Source: a virus (lineage: Duplodnaviria; Caudoviricetes). From it: 64,000 nucleotides of DNA. The position numbers were made by a program, and so were the translations under genes. Positions 2,992 to 52,821 of this stretch are shown in pieces (the first letter of the stretch is position 1; each line of letters begins with the position of its first letter). The stretch lies in IMG/VR virus record IMGVR_UViG_3300042940_001591, one strand, 5' to 3'. Under the pieces are notes generated by a model, which searched no databases, was not told the DNA's origin, and saw only the letters and a list, made by a program, of their open reading frames with translations.

Positions 2992-4449
2992 TTATAGTAC
3001 CATTCTTGACCCTATTAAGAAATTACTTAACCAAGGTGAACCTGGAGATGTGTTTCCACTCAATTTGTAGTTAAAACTAAACCCAAATCGTTTACTCAAC
3101 TTGTAATCAAACGAACTACCTAATAAGAATCCCATATGTCGATTAACGGTGGACGTTCCTGCAACAGTGTTCCAAGATAATGGTGCAAACATTGTAAATA
3201 TTTGTGGAGACACCGTCAACTTTTTACTATATTGATATGGTTTAGTCCAAAAAGCGACTACCGATGACGACATGTTATAATCATAGTTATCTTTTTCATT
3301 TTTAAGAAATAAATTTATCAATCCTAAATTATAACCAAATACACCATGCTTTGGTGTTGGTTTAATATATGTATAACCTAATAAATTCATGTAGTTCCCA
3401 TTCAAATAAGCAAATGCGGTAGAATATGAGTGTATTGCTTTTAATTTACCTTCTGAGAAATCCATCTTAGTGTATCCACCACTAACAATAAATGTTTTTA
3501 GGTCACTCATAATAACCGTATTTGCGGAATAACTTTTATCCCCCATCAAGGATGATTTAGATACCCCAATAGTGGCCGATTGTAACCATCTACCGTCAGG
3601 TGATTCTATTGTTGATAAATCAGAAGATAATAACATAGGATTTGTTGCGACCGCCTTTTCTTTTTTCTTCTCTTCTTTTTTCTTTTCCTCTTCCTTCTTT
3701 TCTTCTTTAGATTCCTCTTTCTTTTCTTCTTTTTTCTCTTCCGATTTAGATTCCTCTTTCTTTTCTTCGGATTTACTTTCAGATTTAGATTCTTCTTTTG
3801 ATTCAGATTTACTTTCGGTTTTTGATTCTGACTTAGTCTCCGATTTAGTTTCGGTTTTTGTTTCTGTTTTAGTTTCAGAAGATGAGGATGATCCACCACT
3901 TGATGACGAACCACTTGATGAAGATGATGAACTTCCACTACTTGGTGGTGGAGGTGTTGATGAACTACTACTTGTTGGTGGTGGAGTAGTGGGTGGTGGT
4001 GTTGACGCGGCGGAACTTGCGGCAGCTGAACTTGCACTTGAACTAGCAGCAGAACTTGCCGATGATGATGCAGCACTACTTGCCGCACCACTTGCAGCAG
4101 AACTAGCGGCTGCAGATGCTGCCGATGCTGCAGCATTACTTGCGGTTTGTGCAGCCGCATTTGCTACCGTTTGTTGAACAATTGGATTATTAATTACAGG
4201 ACAAGTTAATGCCTCATATGTTGCTTTAGTTGTAAATAACCAAGTCTGTACAACTCCCGTTTGTACTTCCATAGGAGAAAATGTTCTTACTTGATTGTAA
4301 AAAGACACAGTAGCATTACCATTTATGATGGTTGTTGTTGCTATCTTTTTTTCACCACTACATTTATCAATAAATGTTTGAGTGTACGTTTGTCCAAAAG
4401 ATTTACCACAAAAAAACAATATTAGGAGAGAGATAATATATTTTTTCAT
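2992..4449 (-). CDS. exported protein with Ala/Ser/Pro and Glu/Lys low-complexity linker and probable C-terminal beta-barrel
   Basis: Signal peptide ..KSFG|Q; alternating aromatic beta-strand pattern in the C-terminal ~220 aa. Confidence 0.65.
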   Translation of the reverse strand: MKKYIISLLILFFCGKSFGQTYTQTFIDKCSGEKKIATTTIINGNATVSFYNQVRTFSPMEVQTGVVQTWLFTTKATYEALTCPVINNPIVQQTVANAAAQTASNAAASAASAAASSAASGAASSAASSSASSAASSSASSAAASSAASTPPPTTPPPTSSSSSTPPPPSSGSSSSSSSGSSSSGGSSSSSETKTETKTETKSETKSESKTESKSESKEESKSESKSEEKKEESKSEEKKEEKKEESKEEKKEEEKKKEEKKKEKAVATNPMLLSSDLSTIESPDGRWLQSATIGVSKSSLMGDKSYSANTVIMSDLKTFIVSGGYTKMDFSEGKLKAIHSYSTAFAYLNGNYMNLLGYTYIKPTPKHGVFGYNLGLINLFLKNEKDNYDYNMSSSVVAFWTKPYQYSKKLTVSPQIFTMFAPLSWNTVAGTSTVNRHMGFLLGSSFDYKLSKRFGFSFNYKLSGNTSPGSPWLSNFLIGSRMVL

Positions 4450-14318: not shown

Positions 14319-14969
14319 TTATTTTTTATCCATTAATTTATTTATTAATTTTTCACTAGCCTTTTTAAGTGCATTACTTAAAGATGTTTGGTTAAACGAC
14401 CCCCCTTCATCGACAATAAGCGTCGACATAGAAACTTCAGATGATGATTCCTCAACAACAAATTCTTTTTCTTTTTTACCGTCTTTTGTTAATGTTCCCT
14501 TCAATCTAATAACCACTTCCTCCTGATTAGAATGGAAAACAGATATGTTCTTCTTTGTTGTAAGAACATCTAAATAAACAATTTGTACTTTTAATTTGTA
14601 AGGAGATGATGCCGATAAATCGTAGCCTTTTTCTTGTAAAAACTCTTCTAATATGTTTTTAACCCCGAATGCTAAATTTCTGTTACCAGCCAATTTACCA
14701 ATTTTAACCTCATTGGTTACACTCTCAACCCAAATATGGTCTTCAGCATTATACCAAATGTTTTCTGGAGAGTTTTTGAATGTTCCATCAATTCTCCACG
14801 AAATCCAATTAACGATATTTCGTTGCAACTCATGTTTGCCGGAAAACTCTAAATAAACAAAGAATAATTGAAAACAAAGGGCAAAGACTATCCAAAATAC
14901 TACTAATCTTAAAAATACCCAAAATAATATATTGCCTAAATTAAGTGATAATGTTCTAATTCTTTCCAT
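14319..14969 (-). CDS. membrane-anchored periplasmic protein, CsgG/LptE-like alpha-beta pattern
   Basis: N-terminal TM; LAFGVKNILEEFL..KLKVQI..ALKKASEKL. Confidence 0.5.
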   Translation of the reverse strand: MERIRTLSLNLGNILFWVFLRLVVFWIVFALCFQLFFVYLEFSGKHELQRNIVNWISWRIDGTFKNSPENIWYNAEDHIWVESVTNEVKIGKLAGNRNLAFGVKNILEEFLQEKGYDLSASSPYKLKVQIVYLDVLTTKKNISVFHSNQEEVVIRLKGTLTKDGKKEKEFVVEESSSEVSMSTLIVDEGGSFNQTSLSNALKKASEKLINKLMDKK

Positions 14970-15155
14970 ATGAAATTTTTTAAAGTACTCCTGGCAATTT
15001 TCATATGAAAAGAGTCAGGAGAGAGATAATTTTTATTTGTCCCTTATAAATATCAACACTTTATACATCTGACAAAAAAAAGTTTTTAACTTTTCTTGAT
15101 TATATACGTATTTATTAATATCTTTGTAAAAGAAAAAAAGATAAAACTAAATTCA

Positions 15156-15251
15156 ATGAGACAATTAACAAACATAACGTCGACATCAAACCAACTAAAT
15201 TGGAATGAGCAACCTATGCGCATATGTCTCGATGATACTGATGTTGGTTAA
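15156..15251 (+). CDS. 31-aa leader peptide of putative attenuator upstream of tRNA array
   Basis: MRQLTNITSTSNQLNWNEQPMRICLDDTDVG*, between promoter TATCTTTG (15119-15126) and terminator. Confidence 0.55.
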   Translation: MRQLTNITSTSNQLNWNEQPMRICLDDTDVG

Positions 15252-15274
15252 TTTAGTTTAACTTAAAATATTAG

Positions 15275-15308
15275 AAAACCTCGGGACTTAAAAATCTCGA
15301 GGTTTTTT
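15275..15308 (+). terminator. intrinsic terminator preceding tRNA array
   Basis: AAAACCTCGGGA / TCTCGAGGTTTT stem followed by T tract. Confidence 0.75.
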
Positions 15309-15321
15309 GTTTTATACAAAT

Positions 15322-15396
15322 AGGGTAATGGACTAATGGCTAAGTCACTTGCTTTGGGAGCAAGGCATCATGGAGGTTCGAGTCCTCTTTACCCTA
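15322..15396 (+). tRNA. tRNA-Pro(TGG)
   Basis: Cloverleaf AGGGTAA/TTACCCT, loop TTTGGGA, T loop TTCGAGT. Confidence 0.85.
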
Positions 15397-15401
15397 CAAA
15401 C

Positions 15402-15473
15402 GCTGATTTAGCTCAGAGGTAGAGCACGAAGCTGTTAACTTCGGGGTCCAGATATCGTAATTCTGAATCAGCG
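15402..15473 (+). tRNA. tRNA-Asn(GTT), non-canonical T loop
   Basis: GCTGATT/AATCAGC, loop CTGTTAA; T arm CAGAT-ATCGTAA-TTCTG. Confidence 0.75.
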
Positions 15474-15479
15474 CAAAAT

Positions 15480-15551
15480 GCGTGTGTAGTTCAATTGGTA
15501 GAATTTCGGTCTCCAAAACCGAAGATGAAGGTTCGAGTCCTTACATGCGTG
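15480..15551 (+). tRNA. tRNA-Trp(CCA)
   Basis: Loop CTCCAAA, T loop TTCGAGT. Confidence 0.85.
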
Positions 15552-15558
15552 CAACAAT

Positions 15559-15638
15559 ACCCGAGTGGTGGAATGGTATACACAGCGGTCTTAGAAACCG
15601 TGTCGAAAGGCGTGTCGGTTCGAGTCCGACCTTGGGTA
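15559..15638 (+). tRNA. tRNA-Leu(TAG)
   Basis: ACCCGAG/CTTGGGT, loop CTTAGAA, variable arm. Confidence 0.9.
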
Positions 15639-15643
15639 CATAT

Positions 15644-15714
15644 TGTCCTTTAGTATAGTGGTAGTACAGATGGTTTTGGTCCATCTAGCTGTGGTTCGAG
15701 CCCACGAGGGACAA
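15644..15714 (+). tRNA. tRNA-Gln(TTG)
   Basis: TGTCCTT/AGGGACA, loop TTTTGGT. Confidence 0.9.
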
Positions 15715-15719
15715 CATAT

Positions 15720-15792
15720 TGCGGGGAGGAGGGTACCCGACCAGTCTCATAAGCTGTGTCTTTTCCGGTTTCGACTACCGGCCCCGCAACCA
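15720..15792 (+). tRNA. tRNA-Met(CAT)-like with shortened D arm, encoded CCA
   Basis: TGCGGGG/CCCCGCA-ACCA, loop CTCATAA, T arm CCGGT-TTCGACT-ACCGG; only 14 nt between acceptor and anticodon stems. Confidence 0.6.
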
Positions 15793-15942
15793 AAAAGATT
15801 TTAAAATAATTTGGAATATCTGAAATTATTTATTATCTTTGTTAAACAATGGTTGATTGGGATTTAACGGGGCTAGCGAATAGCGAGAAACGCCAATCAT
15901 AAAAACAGATGTCCACACCCCCATCTTCTGTTTTCCATAGTA

Positions 15943-16016
15943 GCCCGAATAGCTCAGCTGGCCAGAGCAACTGATTTGTAATCAGTAGGTCCTCAGTTCG
16001 AATCTGAGTTTGGGCT
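15943..16016 (+). tRNA. tRNA-Thr(TGT)
   Basis: Canonical cloverleaf, loop TTTGTAA. Confidence 0.9.
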
Positions 16017-16018
16017 CA

Positions 16019-16275
16019 ACAGGTGACGACGGTGGTGTAACCCCACTGTCTATGAATCCCAAAAGATCCGTCTGACTCGCGAGGTAGGGCGGTGAGGGTA
16101 GAGTTACTATAAGTCGGGAATAATTACCCCAATACGAAAATGTAACCGCAGACTATGTCTGTTATGATGTACATAGATGGTACGAAAAACCTGTAACTTT
16201 TTGAAACTAACTCAACGAGGACTTTGTCAACCAGAGCAGTGACTCGGATGGTGCAACTTAAGGTGAGTTAGAATC
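16019..16275 (+). ncRNA. unidentified structured RNA between tRNA-Thr and tRNA-Ser
   Basis: GC-richer, no ORF; helices ACAGGT/ACCTGT, GACGGTGG/CCACTGTC, CTAACTCA/TGAGTTAG. Confidence 0.4.
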
Positions 16276-16282
16276 AATTTTT

Positions 16283-16367
16283 AGAGAGTTGGCCGAGTGG
16301 TTGATGGCACCAGTCTTGAAAACTGGCATACTGAAAGGTATCTGGGGTTCGAATCCCTAACTCTCTG
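16283..16367 (+). tRNA. tRNA-Ser(TGA)
   Basis: AGAGAGT/ACTCTCT, loop CTTGAAA, long variable arm. Confidence 0.9.
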
Positions 16368-16543
16368 CAAGAATTAACTAAGATACTGTAAAACCAGTAG
16401 GTGGTGATTCCAGATTTATCTGTGAGCCATTTAAACCCTGATAGCAATGTTAATTTTTAATATATAATATTTTTTTTATATTAAGATATTGATTTCCAAC
16501 ATTTTATTCTGTATATTTGTCATATTATTAATATTTATAATAT

Positions 16544-16846
16544 ATGATAGATAAAATCACATTATCGTTAATGTTATTTTTTAACACATTAACATCATCT
16601 ATCGACCCAAGTCTTTCTGATGAAAGAAAGTCAGTCAATCAAATAAAAAAAGAGATTAAATCCCTTGAAAGAAAGATTGAATGGGTTGAAGTAACAGATG
16701 AGAATTACGCTAGCAGGGCCGTCAAAACCAAAGAAATCACGGACGAGATTACCAAATTGAATGGTAAAATTGTAAAGATTGAGAAGGTTGCAAAATTAAA
16801 AGAGAAATGGGCAACGGAAGATTCCTTGTCCAAATCAAAAAAATGA
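16544..16846 (+). CDS. exported coiled-coil protein
   Basis: Hydrophobic N-terminus, heptad-rich; TATTTATA at 16532-16539. Confidence 0.55.
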   Translation: MIDKITLSLMLFFNTLTSSIDPSLSDERKSVNQIKKEIKSLERKIEWVEVTDENYASRAVKTKEITDEITKLNGKIVKIEKVAKLKEKWATEDSLSKSKK

Positions 16847-17292
16847 AAAAAATTTTTTTAGTGCTAACGTTACTTTTGGGAGTGGAAGTCGTAGCAAATG
16901 GACAAGAGTGGTTTATAACCGCCACTCGAAAAGGCGGTCCATCAGACGGTTATATAACAGGTGGTTTTATGAAAAAAGGTTGGGGGTTTTATGCGGGACT
17001 TCCATACGGTGAAATAAAAACCCCAAATGGCGGAATTTCAATTCCCCCTGGTGTTAACACCAATACAGGAAATGTGTCCGATAACATGAAGTTTGGTGTT
17101 CTTAGACAATTAAAAGAAGACAAGGCGATTGTTGGATTTGGATTACAGCCAACACTTGATGGTAATAAACCAAATTTTCTTATAATGTACAATCCACTTA
17201 GGCCAAGTACTGTTATAAATTTATGGACAATTGGTAATTTAGTCGGTAGTGATTTTACATTAGGACTTGGATTATCGTATAAAGTAAAATAA
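16843..17292 (+). CDS. probable small outer-membrane beta-barrel protein
   Basis: Start moved to MKKIFL; signal ..ANG|Q; C-terminal LGLGLSYKVK. Confidence 0.55.
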   Translation: MKKIFLVLTLLLGVEVVANGQEWFITATRKGGPSDGYITGGFMKKGWGFYAGLPYGEIKTPNGGISIPPGVNTNTGNVSDNMKFGVLRQLKEDKAIVGFGLQPTLDGNKPNFLIMYNPLRPSTVINLWTIGNLVGSDFTLGLGLSYKVK

Positions 17293-17413
17293 AATAAAAT
17301 TTTAGTTAAGTTAATTCCCTGAACAAACTAAAAAAATTGTTCGGGGTTTTTTTATATCACATTTTTTGTTTATGTTTGAGTTATAGTTCTTTGATGTATT
17401 GGAAAAACAAAAT

Positions 17414-17498
17414 GCCTGAGTGATGAAATGGTATACATGACAGACTTAAAATCTGTTGAGCAGAAACGCTCGTGCGGGTTCAAGTCCCGCCTCAGGTA
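17414..17498 (+). tRNA. tRNA-Leu(TAA)
   Basis: GCCTGAG/CTCAGGT, loop CTTAAAA. Confidence 0.9.
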
Positions 17499-17615
17499 CA
17501 AATGTAATGACTCAGAAATGAGTGACGGAACGGACGCTACGTATGAAATGGAAACTTTTGATGCACGTACAAAGGTGCTGATTAGAAACAAACCGTACAG
17601 ACATTACATTAACTT

Positions 17616-17689
17616 GGTTCCGTAGCTCAGTTGGATAGAGCAACATCCTTCTAAGATGTGGGTCTTTGGTTCGAATCCAAACGGGATCA
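17616..17689 (+). tRNA. tRNA-Arg(TCT)
   Basis: Canonical cloverleaf, loop CTTCTAA. Confidence 0.9.
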
Positions 17690-17699
17690 CGTAAATTTT

Positions 17700-17773
17700 G
17701 GACTTGTAGCTCACTCGGTTAGAGCGGCACACTCATAATGTGAAGGTAGTAGGTTCGATTCCTACCTGGTCCA
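17700..17773 (+). tRNA. tRNA(CAT), probably Ile2 (lysidine type)
   Basis: GGACTTG/CTGGTCC-A, loop CTCATAA; resembles bacterial Ile2 tRNAs, lacks initiator GGG/CCC. Confidence 0.75.
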
Positions 17774-17785
17774 CTTTTAAGTTAT

Positions 17786-18519: not shown

Positions 18520-19325
18520 TTGGCCGCCTATGGTCGATTAAAATAAACCATGAAAGTGGGATAAAGTGACAAACCCTTGGTTGGGGTAAGTTGCGGTTTC
18601 AGTAATGGAACTTGAGTAGGCAAGTGGAGTATCGTTGAACCTTAAGTACTGAGGGTAACACTTTAGGGAAAGTGGTTTGATGACTAAGCAATCCGAGTTG
18701 TTTGGTTGAGGTGGGGACACCAATAAGAATAATCCATAGAGTTATTGTGAGAAGTATCGTTATCCGACTTTACAATTGCGTGATTCAATATAATGGGAAT
18801 CTTAAAACCGAAAGGTATGGTGAAGTACGAGTGGTGTCGTTATCATCCTTTATTAAACTCTACCAAGGGTTTAGTTCTGAAGGGGTCCAAAAATATGGTA
18901 GCAGGGATGTTACAGAGAGTAGTTTAGTATCGAGTCGCTCAAAAGGTGGCTTGGCTAGGTGACGAACCACTACTTTCCAAATTCGGATAACTAAATTTTG
19001 TTAATTTTGGTTTAACAACTTAAAATCATACAAGAAGAAGTGTTCGTCAGTCGTTGTAGACAGGTGGCTACATAGTCGTGAGGGGTTCACGGCCACAAAG
19101 GGTCTCAAGCCCAATGTGATTTTTAAAAAAGTTCTCTAAACCCGCAAGGTTGAATCAGGGAGGCATCTTTGATGAGTAATGAGTATTAAAAGAGTATATA
19201 ACGACTCAAGGATTGGTTAATCTAATTGACCGCCGCTGATTGGTACTACTCAAAAGGTAGTGGAAAAGGGAAGAAACAAATAATGTCCCTAAGTCAATTA
19301 TTAAGACATGTATTCTCAGTGTTTT
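18520..19325 (+). ncRNA. large ornate ncRNA, GOLLD-like
   Basis: ~800 nt, GC-richer, no credible ORF; promoter TATATTTG 18455-18462 and terminator ~19390-19421; many helices; next to tRNA array as reported for GOLLD; 3' portion resembles GOLLD from memory only. Confidence 0.65.
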
Positions 19326-21297: not shown

Positions 21298-21694
21298 GGG
21301 GGTGCTTGGCATTGATTTCAGGTATCAGGGGTAAGTGGCACGTAGTCAGACTTCATCTATGACTTAAATCTATGGTGGAAAATTCTAGACGGCAACGTTT
21401 ATAACAACATGGAAATTGCAGGTTTACTTGCAACTTCTAACGTAGCAGTAGCCTAAGGCGAAACTACAATCGGGTCGACTGGCATGTAACCTAGGAACAG
21501 AAGCCTTCAAGGTGTAACACCACCCGAAGAGTGTTGGAGCAAATCTGACGGCTCTTGAAAATCCGGTTAGGAACAGTATTGATGGTTTCCTGTAATTAAC
21601 CTTCTATTTGTCTGTTATGAACTAATAGAATAAACGTGTAGTCATTTATTGTTGAACAGGAAAGACACGGGTTCGAGTCCCGTCACCTCCACCA
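21298..21694 (+). ncRNA. ssrA: tmRNA
   Basis: 5' GGGGGTG, 3' T arm ACGGG-TTCGAGT-CCCGT and CACCTCC-ACCA with G3:U70; tag frame 21391-21456 GNVYNNMEIAGLLATSNVAVA*. Confidence 0.92.
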
Positions 21695-21851
21695 TAAACC
21701 CATCTTCGGATGGGTTTTTTGTTTGGTGTCTCTATTAACGAGCAAAAGGTCCGAAGACCCTTTGTCGAGATTTGAAACACCTCCTTTTCGTTTATAAGTA
21801 TTATCGTTTAATGGCGACCAAACCAATTAAACTCTACATATAAATATCTTA

Positions 21852-48758: not shown

Positions 48759-50186
48759 TTAACGGTTCCAACCCTTTTTAGGGTAATTATCAGATAACCA
48801 TAACATTTTATCACTCTGTAATGCCTTATCAATTTGTCCTTTGATGTCTTTCATGTCGGTATAAGCAATTCTTACCAATTTAATCCCTTTCCTCATACAA
48901 TAGTCGTTTTTGTATTTATCATCCATTACACGTAATTCAAAATGTTCCTCGGTCTGATTAAAGGTTCTTATAAAATGAAATCCACCATCAAATTCAAATA
49001 TGGTGTTTAAATCAGGACAATACGCATCAAATTTATATCTGTAACATGTAATTCCTTTCCAAGCGTTTGTACAGTCATCAAATCTTTTATCTTTTATTGT
49101 GTCATAACCTAAAGAATAAAGATATTGTGCCACCGCATCCTCACCTTTGGACGTTGCACATTTGGAACAACCTGATTTACTATATAAATGGGCACCCGAT
49201 TTAATAGAAAAATCACCATGTCCTTTTTTTGGACAGGTTAGAATCACATCATCAATGGATTGTATATAGGGTGATTTTATCAAATCAATTTTCTCGTAGG
49301 TATATTTTGGTGTTCCATCTTTCAATTTATGTATACTACGAGAAAATTCAATCCATTCATCTTTTTTATATGATACTCTTTCTGTTTTCTTAAGTTTTCC
49401 ACATTTGGGGCAACCTACAGGTCTCTCTTGAGCAATTAAACTTTGTGCCAATTTCACATTAAACAAACCGTGTTCCACACCATTTTCATCTTTTTTATGG
49501 CAGATGATATTTCTCACAGGTTCTTTACCTTTACCTTGTTTATAAATCATTTGACTATAATCGTATGTACCCTTACCATTTACTTCTTCAGCCCTTTTTA
49601 TAAACTCCTCACGTGTACGTGATTTTTGAGTAAATACATTTGCACGATATTCATTGGAGCATTGTTTACAATACATGGGGTTATTCTTTGCCAAGAACCA
49701 CTGAGCTCTATTAATAGTAAATGGCCCATGTTCCACTCCATTTTCATCTTTCCTGTGACAGATAATATCTACAGGTTCTTCACTTCCTCTGTATTCTAAG
49801 TTAGAATAGTCCCATCTACCCTCCCCCCATCTTTCTTCCGCCTTTTTTATAAACTTATCTTGATTATGACCAAAACGAGATGATGTGTTCTCAGCACCAC
49901 ATAATTTACAACCATCGTTTCTGTTTATCATATTGTTTATTGCAGCCACTTGTTGTGTACCATGAGGTTTACCGTTATCACCTATTTTGTTACAATAAAA
50001 AGTTATAGGATGTCTAGAACCTTTATAAACTGTTTTGGAAAAGTCATAACGAGGAACTTTTTTACCATTAGGTAGTGTAACTAAATCATTCTTGAATTTA
50101 CTCTTAATTCTTTGCATAAATTCGTCTTGAGTAACTTTTGCGGCTTCGTCAACAACAGTTTCAAATATAATATCAATTAGTTTCAT
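48759..50186 (-). CDS. repeated Zn-ribbon (DUF723-like) domains plus Vsr/DUF559-like PD-(D/E)xK endonuclease
   Basis: Start moved to MKLIDIIFE; repeated YDYS..Y..ICH..HG..C..C; FDAY..FEFDGGFH..D..KN..C..LVRI. Confidence 0.7.
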   Translation of the reverse strand: MKLIDIIFETVVDEAAKVTQDEFMQRIKSKFKNDLVTLPNGKKVPRYDFSKTVYKGSRHPITFYCNKIGDNGKPHGTQQVAAINNMINRNDGCKLCGAENTSSRFGHNQDKFIKKAEERWGEGRWDYSNLEYRGSEEPVDIICHRKDENGVEHGPFTINRAQWFLAKNNPMYCKQCSNEYRANVFTQKSRTREEFIKRAEEVNGKGTYDYSQMIYKQGKGKEPVRNIICHKKDENGVEHGLFNVKLAQSLIAQERPVGCPKCGKLKKTERVSYKKDEWIEFSRSIHKLKDGTPKYTYEKIDLIKSPYIQSIDDVILTCPKKGHGDFSIKSGAHLYSKSGCSKCATSKGEDAVAQYLYSLGYDTIKDKRFDDCTNAWKGITCYRYKFDAYCPDLNTIFEFDGGFHFIRTFNQTEEHFELRVMDDKYKNDYCMRKGIKLVRIAYTDMKDIKGQIDKALQSDKMLWLSDNYPKKGWNR

Positions 50187-50301
50187 ATACACATATAAAT
50201 ATCCCATTAATATTAAGGGACACAAAAATTAAAGGGTCACAAATTGCGAACGGGGGTACCGGAGTACAAAAACCGTGAAAAGGACAGTACGAGGTTAGAA
50301 A

Positions 50302-51882: not shown

Positions 51883-52821
51883 TTAATTGGTTTTGGGATA
51901 TGTGGAATTATAAACGATTTTATCGTTTGTTTTCATATAGATTAATTTGTTCAATATACCAGGAATGTCATTAATTTTCTCAGTATCGGTTTTAACAAAC
52001 ACACGAATCAGTCTAACAATGTCAGGATTATCCATAACATAAGAATCTTTAATACGGTCATTGATTTGTTGTGTTTTAAATTTGGTTTCACCGTTAGTGT
52101 GATTGGACGGTGCAAAATGTAATTCACCATCAAACTCAATCAACATCTTATAGTCAGGAAGAAAGAAATCATATTCAAGTGAGTATTTGTTTTTAAGTCC
52201 GGCAAATCTTTTATACCTCTCATAATATATTCCTTTAGAGTCCAAATATTTTGCAACTGCGGCTTCACCTTTAGATTCAGCACAAGGAGGACAACCTCCA
52301 CCTCTTTTATGGACATTAGCGTCTTGAGTAAAAAATTCATTATGTGTTTTACAAAAAATGGAAAATCTTCGATGTCCGTCTCTTTCTCGACCTGGTATAA
52401 TATAACGTGGGTCGGTGAAATCCACCATAGTATAATCATACTTATCGGGGTCAAGATGACTTTCACGTGACTTCTCAATAAAGTTATTACGTAATCTTTG
52501 TGCTAAACATTGTGGACAACTTGCGGTCGGTTGACTAACCCACGTTCTTAATATCTTACGGAACACTCCGTGTTCTTGACCTTCTTTATCACCGTAATCG
52601 TATATTGCGTGACATTTGATAGGTATTTCATTACGAACTTTAATTCTATCGTTTATATCATATTGAATCAAACTATAGTCATACGGATTACCTTCAACAT
52701 CGAGATACTTAGGATTATCTTTAACCAAATTCATCAACCTCTCCTTATTCCAATCTTCTCTCTTTGGTTTAAGAGTGTTGGAAAGGGTTTCGATTTGTTG
52801 TTCGGTTAATATTATTTTCAT
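51883..52821 (-). CDS. DUF723-like plus Vsr-like endonuclease (paralog of 48759-50186)
   Basis: SKGEAAVAKYL, YDFF..IEFDGELH..D..KD; LTEQQI leader. Confidence 0.7.
   Translation of the reverse strand: MKIILTEQQIETLSNTLKPKREDWNKERLMNLVKDNPKYLDVEGNPYDYSLIQYDINDRIKVRNEIPIKCHAIYDYGDKEGQEHGVFRKILRTWVSQPTASCPQCLAQRLRNNFIEKSRESHLDPDKYDYTMVDFTDPRYIIPGRERDGHRRFSIFCKTHNEFFTQDANVHKRGGGCPPCAESKGEAAVAKYLDSKGIYYERYKRFAGLKNKYSLEYDFFLPDYKMLIEFDGELHFAPSNHTNGETKFKTQQINDRIKDSYVMDNPDIVRLIRVFVKTDTEKINDIPGILNKLIYMKTNDKIVYNSTYPKTN

Follow-up and report, generated by a model that had tools for sequence, protein, structure and literature searches.

The phage tRNA genes in this stretch of DNA appear to be preceded by a ribosome-coupled attenuator of the trp type, which would sense the speed of decoding and feed back on the synthesis of the phage tRNAs themselves. 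On the basis of the comparison of related loci and of folding models, we put the probability of this interpretation at about 0.7. The stretch, here called the window, is 64,000 nucleotides of phage DNA, in which ARAGORN calls ten tRNA genes on the plus strand (15322-17774) plus a tmRNA; the leader is placed between a divergent gene on the minus strand (14319-14969) and the first of these tRNA genes. A sequence-only reading of this region had described a promoter, a 31-codon ORF (15156-15251) and a terminator located 13 nt before tRNA-Pro, and had recognised in them the layout of trp/his attenuation. All three elements are where they were described (Table 1), and the layout proves to be real and conserved, as judged from the related loci, the codon match and the pairings. 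Four things are established at the level of sequence comparison: the anatomy of the leader, the conservation of its frame, the covariation of the pairings (that of segments 1 and 2 in part of the classes), and the match between the codons of the leader and the tRNAs behind it.

Table 1. Features of the leader and of the tRNA array, in window coordinates except where another locus is named
Feature	Position	Strand	Details
Promoter, Bacteroidota type	15096..15126	+	TTG 15096-98, 20-nt spacer, -7 box TATCTTTG 15119-26
Segment 1	15152..15162	+	TTCAATGAGAC; spans the start codon; would pair with segment 2 in the absence of a ribosome
Leader ORF	15156..15251	+	ATG 15156, TAA 15249-15251; 31 codons, predicted peptide MRQLTNITSTSNQLNWNEQPMRICLDDTDVG
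Sensor codons 2-21	15159..15218	+	AGA, CAA, TTA, ACA, AAC, ACG, TCG, TCA, CTA, AAT, TGG, CCT, ATG
Segment 2 (putative antiterminator)	15226..15235	+	core GTCTCGA 15226-32, codons 24-27; partners are segment 1 or the terminator 5' arm
AU-rich hairpin holding the stop codon	15238..15274	+	in folds, forms one long bipartite antiterminator stem with the 2:3 pairing
Intrinsic terminator	15275..15313	+	5' arm core ACCTCGGGA 15278-86 (segment 3), 8-nt loop, 3' arm TCTCGAGGT 15295-15303 (segment 4), T6-G-T4
First tRNA block	15322..15715	+	Pro(UGG), Asn(GUU), Trp(CCA), Leu(UAG), Gln(UUG); spacing 4-6 nt; no promoter of its own; ARAGORN, Rfam
Array remainder	15943..17774	+	Thr(UGU), Ser(UGA), Leu(UAA), Arg(UCU), Met/CAU
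Type 2 leaders	L100:4001-4099, L101:4001-4099

The promoter, with its TTG, its 20-nt gap and its TATCTTTG box, matches the Bacteroidota promoter pattern, and transcription probably starts near 15131. An A-rich untranslated stretch separates the promoter from the ATG. The promoter block is kept in 12 relatives, and the DNA farther upstream is variable. The leader as a whole (192 nt) folds with -43.1 kcal/mol (z = -5.5), and none of 200 shuffled sequences folds as well. At its end, the terminator is a 9-bp G+C-rich stem lengthened by A-U pairs (15275-15307); a consensus scan calls the hairpin and its T-run at 15272-15309 (15 pairs, of which 5 are G-C). The T-run is followed after 13 nt by tRNA-Pro(UGG), which ARAGORN places at 15322. 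There is no TAnnTTTG box within the leader, nor does anything between the terminator and tRNA-Pro look like a promoter. Since that interval has neither a promoter nor the room for one, the tRNAs of the first block could be transcribed only through the terminator.

The related loci were gathered in two ways. The first was the retrieval of 76 IMG/VR loci via a neighbouring protein, in 12 of which the same leader stands before an array that begins with tRNA-Pro. The second was a peptide-profile scan combined with a DNA scan for the tail D-T-D-V-G-stop, which added further loci. The comparison took in about 60 related IMG/VR loci. About 33 of the 45 viral matches to the tail motif belong to a small ORF that is followed by a hairpin with a T-run and by a tRNA array on the plus strand. 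By contrast, the same motif has 112 matches in the genomes of prokaryote species, and none of these has a tRNA within 400 nt; this serves as a negative control only, and gives no clue as to a prophage or a host. The leader family, as defined by this tail, is found in lake phage contigs of up to 336 kb, and three of the relatives (238-336 kb, IMG/VR viral contigs) are rated 100% complete. Because the family was gathered partly by a motif search, it is to be taken as a single lineage, in which about six terminator classes are independent.

Outside this family, a blastn search of GenBank phages with 14970-16100 matched the tRNA genes and not the leader, and no cultured relative was found there; nor does the nearest virus record (G001, a 39-kb fragment) have a match to the leader region. 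With regard to transcripts, 23 metatranscriptome runs from lakes or other freshwater share small parts of the stretch. Contigs from four lake metatranscriptomes cover tRNA-like parts and some spacers, and do not cover 15119-15352; since they stop short of the leader, they have no bearing either way on its expression.

The most direct indication of what the leader might sense comes from its codons. The sequence-only reading had drawn attention to several GC-rich codons (ACG, TCG, CGC, CTC); these are indeed there, and they are uninformative. What is informative is that the tRNAs of the array read 18 of the first 21 codons of the leader under strict wobble rules, as compared with 31.7% of codons across the phage ORFs. 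When 13,598 windows of 21 codons were taken from ORFs, none reached 18 matched codons, the maximum being 16. The last ten codons of the leader, by contrast with the first 21, form a constant tail that is not matched to the array. No tRNA gene of the window is cognate to ATA, to GAG or to most codons of the tail. Conversely, nine of the ten tRNAs of the window have a cognate codon in the leader under the strict rules, and all ten do if Pro-UGG reads CCU.

The same correspondence is found in the relatives. In six of them, every tRNA of the unit has its codon in the leader (10/10, 23/23, 17/17, 15/15, 13/13 and 8/8), for which the null fractions are mostly 1% or less. All types of leader share their first codons and their tail, and differ in their middle codons where the arrays differ. 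Type 2 leaders (L100, L101, L105 and L130), for example, abound in F, I, K, C, H, A and R (CGY), and their arrays contain Ala-like, Ile, Phe, Lys, Trp, Arg(ACG), Cys and His tRNAs. The first tRNA of these type 2 arrays was missed by ARAGORN; in L100 it lies on the plus strand at 4163-4232, where it has an Rfam tRNA score of 30.1 bits and a loop UUUGCAA with the anticodon UGC (Ala), and it is also present in L099, L101-103 and L130. GCG or GCT codons for Ala occur in the type 2 leaders. A type 6 leader (L134:1480-1575) has many codons for N, T, G, P and D and is followed by Pro, Asn, Asp, Gly, Gly and Thr tRNAs. The Trp codon is present in every type with a tRNA-Trp in the array, and is missing from the one type whose first block lacks tRNA-Trp.

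These correspondences were also put into numbers. When the leaders of eight representatives were paired with their own or with swapped arrays (first tRNA blocks), the true assignment was the best of 40,320 permutations, a test in which kinship is ignored. Across 20 leaders, and with no phylogenetic correction, the leader contains the cognate codon in 136 of 145 cases with the tRNA gene no more than 1.5 kb away, as compared with 157 of the 275 other cases. In L101 and L134, the first block alone is matched, and not the blocks that lie beyond long gaps, as would be expected if the leader serves one transcription unit.

A second body of evidence concerns the pairings. In the window, GTCTCGA (15226-32), which is the core of segment 2, can pair with TCGGGAC (15281-87) in the 5' arm of the terminator; this pairing of 7 bp, one of them G-U, had been proposed from the sequence and is confirmed by folds. 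Segment 2 is the best complement of the 5' arm leader-wide, both in the window and in 11 of 12 representatives of the six classes. In each class the complementary stretch is 6-10 nt long and is centred 18-26 nt before the stop codon. The terminator stem itself covaries: the arms CCTCGGGA/TCTCGAGG of the window correspond to CCCTGAGA/TCTCAGGG in L105 and L054, and five more arm sequences occur in other classes, the representatives making up six terminator classes in all. The stretch at the end of the ORF follows these changes, being complementary to the 5' arm of its own class and much less so to the arms of the others. In a duplex matrix of the six classes, only 2 of 720 permutations reach the diagonal formed by each arm and its own ORF end, again with no correction for phylogeny. 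In class B (L104 and L132), segment 2 (GTTAGAGG) repeats the 3' arm of the terminator letter for letter. Covariation of the 7-bp pairing, which the sequence-only reading had named as a means of checking it, is therefore found in six terminator classes and at a constant place relative to the stop codon, and the pairing in the window is one instance of a covarying antiterminator.

Two further pairings complete this picture. Segment 1 is paired with segment 2 in the minimum-free-energy fold of the whole leader, and a similar pairing involving the first six or so codons is seen in classes A, B and D and cannot be made out clearly in C and E. The relatives also retain a hairpin around the stop codon, and its sequence and the length of its loop vary between them. 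Because the classes are shifted by 1-2 nt relative to one another in the MAFFT alignment of the 3' half, these comparisons were based on duplex matrices and on tests of position rather than on column-wise counts of pairs.

These two bodies of evidence bear on the explanation that is the best placed of the alternatives, which we nevertheless consider unlikely, namely that a small functional peptide is the product of the ORF, which has a terminator of its own, and that the tRNAs result from constitutive leak-through with no sensing. Terminators are seldom 100% efficient, and some residues of the peptide (the M-R/K start, H-T, W, M, and the tail L-D/E-D-T-D-V-G) are conserved independently of tRNA content, as this explanation would have it. 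It leaves unexplained, however, why the variable middle of the peptide tracks the downstream tRNA genes in its amino acids and codons, why a copy of the terminator 3' arm is found at a fixed place in the ORF in six classes, and why the element is restricted to the front of tRNA arrays.

How an attenuator of the trp type might choose between the pairings was explored by folding the RNA as it emerges. In nascent folds, the 1:2 pairing is favoured up to about 15275, the 1:2 and 2:3 pairings are equal in energy at 15288-94, and the terminator wins from 15300 onwards. The equality of 1:2 and 2:3 as the 5' arm emerges means that the outcome would be set by the state of segment 2 at that moment. A ribosome, modelled as a mask with a 28-nt footprint on the nascent RNA, has the required effect: with the A site on codons 1-20, the 2:3 pairing is formed (P about 0.98), and with the A site on codons 21-31 it is abolished. 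This switch point, between codons 20 and 21, coincides with the end of the tRNA-matched codons. In the complete transcript, the antiterminator is 6-10 kcal/mol worse than the terminator; being both short and weaker than the terminator, it could act only in a kinetic switch. In the nascent RNA with no ribosome, the equilibrium slightly favours 2:3, so that termination by default would rest on the order of folding. The full-length leader with a ribosome mask always folds the terminator, and hence only folds at nascent lengths are informative about the switch. The earlier proposal that stalled ribosomes cause antitermination of the phage tRNAs thus has the support of comparison in its outline, while its direction, in which a stall leads to read-through, is one that we infer from this geometry and these models.

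The direction could, in principle, be the opposite. In a pyrBI-like arrangement, a ribosome at the stop codon would hinder the terminator, such that efficient translation would license the tRNAs and stalling would shut them off. The distance from the stop codon to the terminator stem is of interest here. It is only 23-26 nt in the window, 24-28 nt in 11 of 12 representatives and 24-34 nt in all 12, and this conservation fits the idea. At the lambda tR2 terminator of E. coli, a ribosome at the stop codon lowered termination when the distance was below roughly 27 nt (PMC4824070). The spacing in the window is near this limit; at about such a distance, a ribosome that terminates ceases to be a hindrance to the terminator in E. 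coli (PMC4824070). This polarity nonetheless seems improbable to us: the ORF never enters the terminator, the covarying complementarity of segment 2 and the 5' arm would be left with no role, and a ribosome modelled on the last ten codons takes away the pairing that competes with the terminator, leaving the terminator itself in place. Moreover, the result would be a positive feedback on tRNA supply with no obvious benefit.

In the attenuator of the trp type, events would proceed as follows. The RNA would start near 15131, and a ribosome would load on the A-rich leader and translate the 31 codons while the polymerase advances. If codons 2-21 are decoded fast, the ribosome would cover segment 2 (15226-35) and then sit on the stop codon, where it lies between segment 2 and the terminator. 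With segment 2 covered, the arms 15275-87 and 15295-15307 would pair, and transcription would terminate at the T-run before tRNA-Pro. If decoding is slow because a cognate tRNA is scarce, uncharged or cleaved, the ribosome would lag behind and leave segment 2 free to pair with the 5' arm (GTCTCGA:TCGGGAC), stacked on the hairpin that holds the stop codon. The terminator would then be blocked, and the polymerase would enter the Pro-Asn-Trp-Leu-Gln block and perhaps go beyond it. In a leader that is not translated at all, segment 1 would trap segment 2 first, and termination would ensue. The net effect would be a negative feedback in which phage tRNAs are produced on demand. Such a mechanism presumes that the ribosome keeps pace with the polymerase in the host.

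The physiological trigger of the switch would presumably be such a slowing down of decoding; that anticodon nucleases or starvation are what bring it about is a matter for speculation. The more specific idea of a feedback driven by demand, in which a peptide that samples many codons reports which downstream tRNAs are limiting and opens the terminator only then, is one to which we lean, if not strongly. The sensing of codons does not account for everything in the peptide, since it offers no reason for the conservation of the tail L-D/E-D-T-D-V-G and of the N-terminal M-R/K...H-T. It is tempting to speculate that the D-T-D-V-G-stop tail is a signal for slow termination, which would park the ribosome between the antiterminator and the terminator.

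The attenuator requires that the leader ORF be translated, and here too the relatives are instructive. Conservation of the ORF in related phages had been given by the sequence-only reading as a further check on its proposal, and the frame is open in all 25 of the distinct variants obtained from related contigs, with lengths of 30-57 codons. The differences in length between leaders are multiples of 3 nt. In the tail, the Val and Gly codons vary synonymously, with three or four forms, and the residues L-D/E-D are encoded by CTC GAT GAT in the class of the window and by TTA GAG GAY in another class. An open frame, insertions and deletions of 3 nt, and synonymous change are what is expected of a translated sequence and do not fit a purely structural RNA; it is on this pattern of substitutions that the probable translation of the leader ORF is based. 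That the leader is instead a noncoding structured RNA (an sRNA or an element for the processing or stability of the tRNA precursor) in which the ORF is incidental is most improbable. In favour of this are the strong fold with its three conserved hairpins, the very high conservation of nucleotides in the 3' half, and a neighbouring pre-tRNA-Thr element that looks noncoding. Against it, the frame stays open in 25 of 25 variants with indels in threes and varying third positions in the tail, the amino acids of the tail are retained by different codons across classes, and the leader belongs to no Rfam family, the best match being a His_leader at 25.2 bits, below its threshold of 49. All three of these alternatives fit the covariation data worse than the attenuator does.

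It is useful to compare the leader with systems that are already known. It resembles the trpL, hisL, leuL, thrL and pheL attenuators in having a promoter, a short ORF with putative regulatory codons, and segments that can pair as 2:3 and 3:4 and, in the window and some of the classes, as 1:2. As in the amino-acid leaders generally, the terminator lies directly before the genes that would be regulated, in a layout alike to that in which a stalled ribosome frees the antiterminator. Among these systems, it is most like the multivalent ilvGMEDA and thr leaders of the enterobacteria, since these sense several codon types at once, as the phage leader would. There are, however, differences. Amino-acid attenuators use runs of a single codon, whereas the phage leader samples about ten codon types, mostly one to three times each. 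Its segment 1 overlaps the start codon, unlike that of leaders of the trp/his type, and its signals are of the Bacteroidota type. Above all, amino-acid attenuators control biosynthetic enzymes, whereas the phage leader precedes tRNA genes. As the regulated genes are those of tRNAs, the decoding speed that is sensed would depend directly on the product, and it is the presence of tRNA genes behind the terminator that places the leader outside every named leader family. There is also no relationship in sequence to these leaders, and no Rfam leader family is matched at threshold: apart from the His_leader match (RF00514) already mentioned, the matches are weaker and driven by the terminator.

Two other systems invite comparison. 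The T-box riboswitches likewise read the status of tRNA, choose between a terminator and an antiterminator, and lie upstream of translation-related genes. They differ, however, in that they bind a single uncharged tRNA via a specifier codon and the T-box bulge, with no ORF and no ribosome, and in that they control genes for synthetases or for amino acids. The T-box model has no match in the leader even at E values up to 10. The pyrBI leader likewise has a short ORF, a terminator, and a dependence on the closeness of ribosome and polymerase. In pyrBI, however, the ORF runs through the terminator and the ribosome blocks the hairpin, whereas the phage ORF stops 23-26 nt short of it and there is a separate, covarying antiterminator.

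A related question is that of how far into the array the attenuator acts. The leader samples the codons of all five of the later tRNAs, but these are preceded by promoter-like boxes at 15833-40 and 17372-79; the attenuator may or may not act on them too. The box at 17372-17379 (TATGTTTG, plus strand), which lies 35 nt before tRNA-Leu(UAA), has neither a leader ORF nor a terminator, which indicates that not all blocks of the array are gated. At 15833-15942 (plus strand), there is a second TATCTTTG box (15833-40, a repeat of the -7 box), together with an element of about 90 nt that has a weak terminal hairpin directly before tRNA-Thr. It is near-invariant in the window and in L004, L005, L006 and L013, is absent from L009, L019 and L098, and has no match in Rfam. 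Metatranscriptome contigs cover 15834-15938, one of them at a depth of 882. This element was considered as a second coding attenuator and rejected, given that its ATG is ATT in L004, that its 90 or so nucleotides are near-invariant, and that three of the loci lack it; its sequence makes it look like a noncoding insert and not a leader ORF.

Several other parts of the array deserve mention. Right after tRNA-Gln, there is a tRNA-shaped stretch (15719-15792, plus strand), in which an acceptor-like stem, a T-arm and a CUCAUAA loop can be recognised and which is conserved in L009. It is called neither by ARAGORN nor by Rfam (E up to 1), and at the corresponding position in L005 a Met(CAU) tRNA is called. 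Between tRNA-Thr and tRNA-Ser lies a stretch that is rich in G+C and free of ORFs (16020-16280, plus strand) and is a candidate for a structured RNA; contigs from RNA libraries lie over 16028-16235 and 16037-16147. As for the CAU tRNA (17700-17774), comparison with the Ile and Met tRNAs of the phages did not separate Met from a lysidine-type tRNA-Ile, which could read the ATA codons of the leader.

The wider setting of the array contains other elements connected with RNA. A gene for an RNA ligase similar to T4 Rnl1 is located at 836-2044 on the plus strand (phrog_562, E = 3e-70). T4 Rnl1 mends tRNAs that have been cleaved by the anticodon nuclease of the host, and a ligase of this kind fits a phage whose tRNA supply is under pressure. 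Just downstream of the tRNA array, at 18915-19322 on the plus strand, is a full-length Rfam match to the GOLLD RNA (303.7 bits against a cut-off of 150); GOLLD is known to associate with phage tRNA clusters, and the window agrees with this. The phage tmRNA lies at 21298-21694 on the plus strand (ARAGORN tag ATSNVAVA; Rfam 78 bits) and is followed by a terminator at 21696-21717; it is a ribosome-rescue RNA that lies near an element which would act via the stalling of ribosomes. Two HNH/homing endonuclease genes (phrog_559 and phrog_9084), less than 3 kb apart, are found on the minus strand at 48759-50225 and 51883-52821.

Phage tRNA genes have been proposed to compensate for differences in codon usage, to replace host tRNAs that are degraded, and to help the phage escape anticodon nucleases. 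A full-text search of the literature, in which not every journal is covered, found no description of control of the present kind for tRNA genes. If the interpretation given here is right, phage tRNAs would be made in response to a measured deficit in decoding, and the array would be turned on when the tRNA pool of the host is degraded, has been cut by anticodon nucleases or does not suit the codon usage of the phage. The sequence of the leader would name the tRNAs that the phage expects to lack, and the question of what these genes are for would become testable. For uncultured phages, it would supply a rule for delimiting the transcription units of tRNA genes. More generally, the leader would offer a small, naturally occurring means of sensing how fast many codons are translated, and attenuation by leader peptides would be extended from enzymes to the decoding machinery.
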